Source: an uncultured Candidatus Saccharibacteria bacterium
Lineage (GTDB): Bacteria > Patescibacteriota > Saccharimonadia > Saccharimonadales > Saccharimonadaceae
NCBI GenBank assembly: GCA_943914775.1
Contig: CALUDH010000006.1
Location: 5,291-69,290, forward strand
Length of the DNA: 64,000 nucleotides
Direction: 5' to 3'
Under the pieces are notes generated by a model that did not search any database, was not told the DNA's origin, and worked only from the letters and a program-made list of their open reading frames with translations. Each line of letters starts with the position of its first letter. Within the stretch, counting starts at the first letter, position 1. Positions 29,935 through 31,222 of this stretch are shown here, piece after piece. Made by a program: the position numbers and the translations under genes.

Positions 29935-30022
29935 ATAGAGTATACACGAGGACTTGCAGGAACAATTATGAATTATTGCCAGCTCTATCGTGCTTATAAT
30001 ATGATTTTCTAGGAGAACCATT

Positions 30023-31222
30023 ATTAGTACGCAACCAAATCGAGTTAAAACTAATTTTGTACCGAGCGCAAAGGCTCATTCTAGCAAAACTAAAAGGCGC
30101 GGTGGTGTTTCTTGGACTTCCGTAGTATCGTATGTCGGCGTTTTTCTATTCATAGCAACGCTAATTGCTATCGGACAACGTCCAGTCGGCGTTCAGGAAG
30201 GTAGTAATAATACGCCGCTGGCTAATGCCTCTACCTCAAGCACTAAAAATACTGTAGCAGCTGCAACTTCCGCTAGTACGGTAGACCCGGTTGTCGCTAC
30301 GAACATAGCTTCGTCGCTAGCAGACACTACCAGCATGCCAGTTAGCGCTAACGTGGCGACACTTTCTCAGACGCTGACTATTGAAACGGTAATGTCACAG
30401 ACCTCCAGTAATGCGATTAGTAAGCCGCAGATTGTCCAGCCGACAGCTAATTCGCGGGCGGCTACTACTTATACCACCAAGGCTGGCGATACAGTCGATG
30501 CAGTAGCCAGCAAATATGGACTCAAGAAAGAGACTATAGCTTGGGCCAATAATCTATCGTCTGATGCGCTGGAGCCAAATACTACTTTAACAATTCTGCC
30601 AGTTGATGGTGTTCAGCATACCGTTAAGGCGGGTGACTCTGTTGATAGTATCGTTGCCAAGTATGGCGGTAATAAGGCTGATGTGGTGTCGTATAATGAC
30701 CTAGAGCTCACTGGTTCGCTAACTGAAGGTAGGAACATTATTGTTCCTGGCGGTGCTTTGCCAGAAAATGAACGTCCAGGATATGTGGCTCCTCGTGCTG
30801 CGGCTAGTAATCGGCGCAGCGCTTATGGGTATGGGTCGGGCCTGGGCGGTTACGGAAGCAATTACAATGGGGTTATCTCTGCCGGTAACAAATATGCATG
30901 GGGGAACTGTACTTGGTACGCTTACGAGCGCCGAATGCAGCTAGGACGCCCAGTCGGTAGTTTCTGGGGTAATGCTAGTACTTGGGCTTATGCGGCAGCA
31001 GCGGCTGGATTGGCAGTTAATGGTACGCCAGCGCCTGGCGCAATAATGCAAAACGGCGGCGGATACGGCCATGTGGCAATTGTCGAGAGCGTTAACCCGG
31101 GCGTATCAATCACAATTAGCGAGATGAACGGTTATCGCTTTGGCGGCGGCTTCAATCGCGTTGGTCATGGCCAGATTTCCTGGGGCGAGGCCACTAGCGG
31201 TTACTATAGATATATTCACTAA
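30023..31222 (+). CDS. Membrane-anchored LysM (x2) + CHAP peptidoglycan hydrolase, with a proposed non-canonical ATT start behind a consensus SD
   Basis: The canonical ORF 30335..31222 encodes two LysM repeats and a CHAP domain (NCTWYAY...GHVAIVE). Upstream of 30335 the frame stays open back to TGA at 30002. That stretch encodes a TM helix (VSWTSVVSYVGVFLFIATLIAIG) and a T/A/S-rich linker. It contains no ATG, GTG or TTG. AGGAGA at 30011-30016 is followed by ATT ATT at 30020-30025. Confidence 0.55.
   Translation: MSTQPNRVKTNFVPSAKAHSSKTKRRGGVSWTSVVSYVGVFLFIATLIAIGQRPVGVQEGSNNTPLANASTSSTKNTVAAATSASTVDPVVATNIASSLADTTSMPVSANVATLSQTLTIETVMSQTSSNAISKPQIVQPTANSRAATTYTTKAGDTVDAVASKYGLKKETIAWANNLSSDALEPNTTLTILPVDGVQHTVKAGDSVDSIVAKYGGNKADVVSYNDLELTGSLTEGRNIIVPGGALPENERPGYVAPRAAASNRRSAYGYGSGLGGYGSNYNGVISAGNKYAWGNCTWYAYERRMQLGRPVGSFWGNASTWAYAAAAAGLAVNGTPAPGAIMQNGGGYGHVAIVESVNPGVSITISEMNGYRFGGGFNRVGHGQISWGEATSGYYRYIH

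Follow-up and report, generated by a model that had tools for sequence, protein, structure and literature searches.

The locus and its missing start codon

Where does translation begin in a gene whose reading frame lacks a canonical start codon ahead of the segment that anchors its product to the membrane? This question is raised by a LysM/CHAP peptidoglycan hydrolase gene on the forward strand of the window, i.e. of the whole stretch of 64,000 nucleotides analysed here. The window is standard-code Saccharibacteria DNA with 46% GC. TGA is the stop codon of 6 of its 46 long ORFs, so it does not come from a TGA-recoding lineage. On the same grounds, an upstream extension of the hydrolase frame by recoding (code 25) is ruled out.

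The gene is preceded by ruvX and mltG/yceG and followed by obg and an exonuclease I-like gene. A sigma-70-type promoter (29905–29934, TTGACA-18 nt-TATAAT, with a TG before the −10 box) matches the consensus at 12 of 12 positions and implies a transcription start that would give a leader of about 70–80 nt (29941–30010). This putative leader is devoid of notable structure, since it folds no better than its shuffles (z-score −0.22). Downstream of the gene, a hairpin that resembles an intrinsic terminator, with a run of T behind it (31242–31267), indicates that the hydrolase is transcribed as a monocistronic unit. A second promoter-like site (29976–30005, TTGCCA-18-TATGAT, 10 of 12 positions) lies within the leader and the upstream ORF discussed below, but it is probably non-functional because its −35 box varies in the clade and its transcript would begin inside the ribosome-binding site. 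At 28605–28610, the stop codon of ruvX overlaps that of the mltG/yceG start (ORFs 28210–28608 and 28608–29900), which suggests that these two genes are translationally coupled. For the 550-aa ORF immediately 5' of ruvX (26565–28214, forward strand), Pfam gave no match at E ≤ 1e-5. The gene infC, which we sought in the window for the sake of its own start codon, is absent from it.

A previous sequence-only reading of this DNA had stated that the hydrolase frame is open, without ATG, GTG or TTG, from the TGA at 30002–30004 to the first ATG at 30335. This was borne out for the entire stretch of 110 codons (30005–30334). The same reading had placed a Shine-Dalgarno (SD) sequence, AGGAGA, at 30011–30016 and ATT ATT shortly after it (30020–30025), and these coordinates are exact. 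The full sequence after the SD is ACC ATT ATT (30017–30025). The two ATT are the only near-cognate codons 5' of the hydrophobic segment. The first (30020–30022) begins 4 nt after GGAG and 3 nt after AGGAGA, the second (30023–30025) begins 7 nt after GGAG. The significance of the SD-ATT arrangement comes from its frame, its position and its conservation, not from the bare motif. AGGAG-N7-ATT occurs twice in the window when 1.46 occurrences are expected, which is not above chance. Among the open frames of 150 codons or more in the window, however, only that of the hydrolase combines an SD and a near-cognate codon with a head that lacks canonical starts over at least 40 codons.

We propose that the gene is very probably translated from a non-canonical AUU start set by the SD AGGAG(A). 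The likeliest initiation codon would be the second ATT, read as fMet, which yields a corrected CDS of 399 codons for amino acids at 30023–31222, with the TAA stop at 31220–31222. Judging from its sequence, the product is a membrane-anchored LysM/CHAP peptidoglycan hydrolase. A cytoplasmic N-terminal tail, rich in K/R near the membrane (KTKRRGG; 30026–30118), precedes a TM signal-anchor helix of 19 residues with a mean Kyte-Doolittle hydropathy of 2.25 (SVVSYVGVFLFIATLIAIG; 30119–30175). The helix had been predicted from the window, and the comparison with orthologs finds it in all of them. Across lineages, the 12 residues before it include 175 K/R for only two D/E, in agreement with the positive-inside rule. 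A linker rich in S/T/A follows (30176–30469). It shows a codon-position pattern and contains the ATG at 30335–30337, which would then encode an internal Met. The remainder consists of two LysM domains (30470–30601 and 30617–30748; Pfam PF01476) and a CHAP amidase/peptidase domain (30884–31129; PF05257, E = 7.7e-22), whose catalytic Cys (GNCTWY) and His (GHVAIV) are invariant in the ortholog alignment.

Coding selection and conservation upstream of the first ATG

We compared the window with 29 assemblies labelled Candidatus Saccharibacteria or Nanosynbacter, at 97–99% nucleotide identity. These 30 genomes are hereafter the clade set. Between the second ATT and the first ATG (30026–30334), they differ at 43 sites, 37 of which are at codon position 3, five at position 1 and one at position 2. 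The changes are 37 synonymous and six nonsynonymous. Similar patterns were found in the undisputed remainder of the gene, where 110 of 130 variable sites are at position 3, and in the 3' end of mltG (21 of 28). These patterns of substitution show coding selection on the head of the frame, and the bias towards position 3 and towards synonymous changes upholds the earlier view that the TM helix and the linker at the N-terminus belong to the translated protein. The earliest synonymous polymorphism (ACG/ACA) lies two codons past the second ATT, at codon 3 of the CDS. The 15 nt from the SD through the second ATT have no variant in the clade set. Five consecutive synonymous differences separate the clade from its nearest outgroup (L028, with 86% identity in the segment that aligns best) upstream of the first ATG of the latter. 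Selected coding sequence extends 5' of every canonical start, which is one of the features by which we assign the gene to the class of AUU starts. Further features of this class found here are a near-cognate AUH codon at a functional distance from the SD and the conservation of this codon among orthologs.

This conservation spans the phylum. A scan with one genome per species retrieved 80 loci, with protein identities of 47–100%. Wherever the region is present it carries the same signature: GGAG, A, a variable codon, a codon that is mostly ATH, ATT and usually CGT AAT CAA, which translates as RR-x-I-I-R-N-Q. Among 46 non-redundant Saccharibacteria lineages, the codon 5–7 nt past GGAG is ATT, or ATC in three cases (the L031 group, L049 and L069), and never another. 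The codon counts given below are based on a table of 43 lineages (41 with ATT and two with ATC), to which five further loci were added separately. GGAG itself is kept in 38–41 of the 43. The sequence-only reading had raised the matter of whether orthologs start with an ATG at the equivalent position; none has one at that of 30023–30025.

The frame is open between the conserved ATT and the TM helix across lineages, with 0 stops in 1704 codons, whereas the other two frames have 42 and 134. In thirteen lineages this interval is entirely free of ATG, GTG and TTG, and the downstream ATGs of other lineages lack an SD. Nine lineages have an ATG, GTG or TTG one codon upstream, only 1 nt past GGAG, and may use that codon despite its poor spacing. 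More generally, the codon before the equivalent of 30020–30022 is ACG in 15 lineages, ATG in six, AAG in five, with other codons besides. One of the loci (L035; contig JBLMYW010000051.1, 4224 nt) is part of a MAG labelled Acidobacteriota. It has a LysM-CHAP locus typical of Saccharibacteria, marked by the signature SD-GTG-ATT-ATT-CGT-AAT-CAA, and the contig is probably a binning contaminant.

Alternative accounts of the start

Initiation at ATT after AGGAGA, one of the two routes put forward in the sequence-only reading, emerges as by far the best explanation, and the comparative data favour the second ATT (30023–30025). In the flanking Saccharibacteria genes, the distance from GGAG to the start codon has its mode at 5–9 nt. 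The conservation of the second ATT and its 7-nt spacing, which is at the mode, together place the start at 30023 and predict a product of 399 aa that begins M-S-T-Q-P-N-R. Alternatively, ribosomes could start at the first ATT (30020–30022) and make a 400-aa product beginning M-I-S-T-Q. This codon is also near-cognate and downstream of the SD, and its counterpart is ATT, ATA or ATC in 34 of the 43 lineages (ATT 26, ATA 6, GTT 4, ACC 2, ATC 2, ATG 1, AAT 1, GCA 1). Yet eight lineages have the non-initiating GTT, ACC, AAT or GCA at this position and keep the next ATT, and a spacing of 4 nt is rare (3 of 105 genes). We therefore regard the first ATT as an unlikely start. The second is most likely the one used in the window, as judged by comparison and spacing only.

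The other proposed route involved a small upstream ORF (uORF) of 14 codons (MNYCQLYRAYNMIF; 29968–30012), which is present as described: its ATG is at 29968, and its TAG (30010–30012) overlaps the SD. If the AUU start needed the translation of this uORF, ribosomes would terminate at the TAG in the SD and re-initiate 8–13 nt downstream. The geometry fits such a sequence of events, a weak AGGA lies 6 nt upstream of the uORF ATG, and both the ATG and the TAG are kept in 30 of 30 clade genomes. Nevertheless, the uORF is restricted to the clade of the window. In L028 and in almost all other lineages there is no ORF ending in the SD, although SD-N7-ATT is kept. Within the clade, all six variable sites of the uORF are nonsynonymous, and in one genome a CAG became TGG. 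Lineages that lack the uORF also keep the ATT start, so that coupling to the uORF is unneeded, and the choice of the start is already accounted for by a strong SD at optimal spacing. Coupling or re-initiation was thus not borne out, and we hold a start that depends on the uORF to be improbable. The uORF is probably fortuitous, with a possible clade-specific contribution to initiation of the hydrolase. We also inspected the junction for a +1 frameshift by which ribosomes on the uORF would enter the main frame, and rejected it because AUU UUC UAG is not slippery and offers no +1 re-pairing.

Public annotation gives a different answer. The NCBI product has 295 aa and starts at the ATG at 30335 (e.g. 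MBB1566245.1), and this exact product is found on 553 contigs. If this were right, the protein would have no anchor and 30005–30334 would be an untranslated leader. The ATG at 30335 is indeed the first canonical start. However, as the sequence-only reading had noted, it has no SD: there is no GGAG, AGGA or GAGG within the preceding 20 nt. The 103 codons upstream of it show the position-3 bias and the 37:6 ratio of synonymous to nonsynonymous changes described above, and the TM helix with its positive-inside tail is conserved as protein across the phylum, in an open frame. Moreover, the 295-aa form would be an extracytoplasmic hydrolase without any export signal. For all these reasons, a start at 30335 seems very improbable to us. 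The calls in other genomes vary. Sister genomes have calls of 365–366 aa, which begin inside the TM helix, at a GTG that arose there through a synonymous change. Other lineages are called either from spurious upstream ATGs, through the leader RNA described below (e.g. MRVCSRRMIINTQ), or from internal Mets. A 179-aa call is also present in the protein cluster P0001/P0121, so that public calls are inconsistent. Neither the 399-aa nor the 400-aa form occurs among the roughly 15 billion proteins of the collection searched. By missing the AUU start, public annotation would cut off the membrane anchor. Initiation at AUU would correct this systematic error and make the true protein a membrane-anchored, surface-exposed hydrolase, a point of relevance to models of wall remodelling by these epibionts, be it of their own wall or of the host's.

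An artefact or decay (an ATG misread as ATT, a start-less pseudogene or a +1 frameshift from the uORF) is hardly credible, as nothing favours it beyond the missing canonical start and the +1 offset between the uORF and the main frame, and against it stand a sequence that is the same in 29 assemblies, an ATT that is conserved phylum-wide, strong purifying selection over the whole hydrolase gene and, for the frameshift, the lack of a slippery site and of conservation of the uORF peptide. The base calls at 30020–30025, which the earlier reading had singled out for verification, are secure: 29 assemblies, obtained independently in several studies, all read AGGAGAACCATTATT, with 30011–30025 free of variants, so the ATT is no sequencing error.

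The lysM-TM7 leader RNA and known AUU starts

In most lineages the conserved ATT follows a structured RNA. According to the main text of Weinberg et al. (2017; PMC5737381), which leaves the start codon undiscussed, lysM-TM7 (RF03005) is a candidate cis-regulatory RNA of the 5' UTRs of lysM genes that was grouped with c-di-AMP-related motifs by gene context but did not bind c-di-AMP. We found RF03005 immediately upstream of the hydrolase in 37 of the 40 other lineages searched, with scores of 76–119.5 bits (the gathering score is 61.5). The unpaired 3' end of the RNA, CAGGAG, is the very SD that precedes the AUU, and the SD of the window (30011–30016) is homologous to the 3'-terminal GGAG of lysM-TM7 in other lineages.

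The RNA itself was not detected in the window. A Rfam scan of the entire window at the gathering score gave no match, RF03005 included. The covariance model of RF03005 did not match the leader even at E ≤ 10, and the leader does not align with the lysM-TM7 RNAs of other lineages. We accordingly rejected a riboswitch or other leader RNA in the window, in view of the lack of any Rfam match at E ≤ 10 and of a fold above that of shuffles. Three other lineages (L028, L035 and L053) also lack a scoring RF03005 match, L035 only in that it falls below the gathering score. In the window and in L028, a consensus sigma-70 promoter fills the short intergenic space instead of lysM-TM7. The absence of lysM-TM7 in the clade of the window looks like the lineage-specific loss of an orphan riboswitch candidate.

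It is important to consider that the conservation of the ATT may have more than one cause. In the lineages that carry the RNA, the CGU AAU CAA that follows the AUU is conserved even at synonymous sites (over the 43 lineages, CGT is found in 34 and AAT in 26). As a consequence, the conservation of the ATT could partly reflect a constraint of lysM-TM7 at the RNA level. Conservation extends by about 20 nt beyond the GGAG that forms the 3' end of RF03005 (A-NNN-ATH-ATT-CGT-AAT-CAA; L036–L079, e.g. L056:2966–2990), and the functional 3' boundary of lysM-TM7 may include the start region. The stretch found there in RNA-bearing lineages reads CGUAAUCAA. When we ran RNAalifold on a MAFFT alignment of 37 loci extended by 33 nt downstream, only two local stems were recovered, with no pairing between the AUU region and the body of the RNA. 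The lineages without the RNA are informative in this respect. In the clade of the window, in L028 and in L053, the ATT is kept and the following CGT AAT is not; CGT AAT CAA is retained in L035. That the ATT persists without the RNA while CGT AAT is lost argues that it is held independently of the RNA, as a start codon.

These observations suggest the following scheme. The SD AGGAG(A) at 30011–30016 would position the ribosome on an AUU, most likely that at 30023–30025, which the fMet-tRNA would decode as it does in infC, pcnB and cvfC1. IF3 discriminates against AUU initiation. By extrapolation from E. coli and S. aureus, initiation would then be many times less frequent than at AUG and subject to this discrimination. 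The combination of a strong SD and a weak codon could keep the amount of a potentially autolytic enzyme small and tied to the translational state of the cell. In most Saccharibacteria, lysM-TM7 presumably adds a layer of control that depends on a ligand or a condition. In the Nanosynbacter-type clade of the window, the RNA would have been lost, leaving the promoter, a short leader, the SD and the AUU, with the uORF as a clade-specific by-product. Control in the window appears to rest on the weakness of the start codon alone.

More tentatively, the AUU could be the regulated output of lysM-TM7 across Saccharibacteria. A weak start, discriminated by IF3 and placed 7 nt behind the terminal SD of the RNA, would put the synthesis of the main membrane-anchored LysM-CHAP hydrolase under the joint control of a ligand or condition and of translational state. 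In oral Nanosynbacter, the RNA would have been dropped and only the AUU brake would be left. We consider this broader idea possible but doubtful. The AUU start would by itself define the expression platform of lysM-TM7 as an SD and a weak start 7 nt later, allowing more realistic designs for reporters and in-line probing of this riboswitch candidate.

A literature search of incomplete coverage retrieved no work on AUU or other non-canonical starts in Saccharibacteria or Patescibacteria, or on this hydrolase, nor any Saccharibacteria initiation site mapped by N-terminal sequencing, toeprinting or Ribo-seq. Weak AUU/AUA starts behind strong SDs have precedents elsewhere (PMC13009471; bioRxiv 10.1101/063800). 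In E. coli reporters, AUU gives about 1–2% of the initiation obtained with AUG (bioRxiv 10.1101/063800); for S. aureus genes that have strong SDs, the figure is about 10% (PMC13009471). From the comparative evidence, the hydrolase would be a new, phylum-wide case of this known mechanism, in which a gene starts at a weak AUU as do infC, pcnB and cvfC1. It would also be a rare and deeply conserved case of AUU initiation outside genes for translation and RNA metabolism.

How does the hydrolase compare with known systems? It shares with the c-di-AMP (ydaO) riboswitches and other leader RNAs of cell-wall hydrolase genes the post-transcriptional restraint that would be placed on a peptidoglycan hydrolase. 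Unlike in those systems, there is no match to ydaO or to any other Rfam family in the window. Relative to the lysM-TM7 loci, the gene family and the SD are the same, whereas the leader of the window has no detectable RNA. The closest parallel is with the genes that start at AUU or AUA, i.e. infC and pcnB in E. coli, and cvfC1 (AUU), ccpN, infC and citZ (AUA) in S. aureus. As in these genes, the hydrolase has a near-cognate AUH conserved among orthologs, a strong SD and a normal spacing, and by analogy its initiation is expected to reach a few percent of that of AUG and to be sensitive to IF3. It differs from them in its function, since they encode a translation factor, an RNA-metabolism enzyme or a regulator and this gene a predicted membrane-anchored cell-wall hydrolase. 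It also differs in its breadth: the proposed AUU start spans a whole phylum of epibionts with reduced genomes. Finally, and in contrast to these genes, the AUU of most hydrolase lineages comes after a structured leader RNA, at a constant distance of 7 nt.
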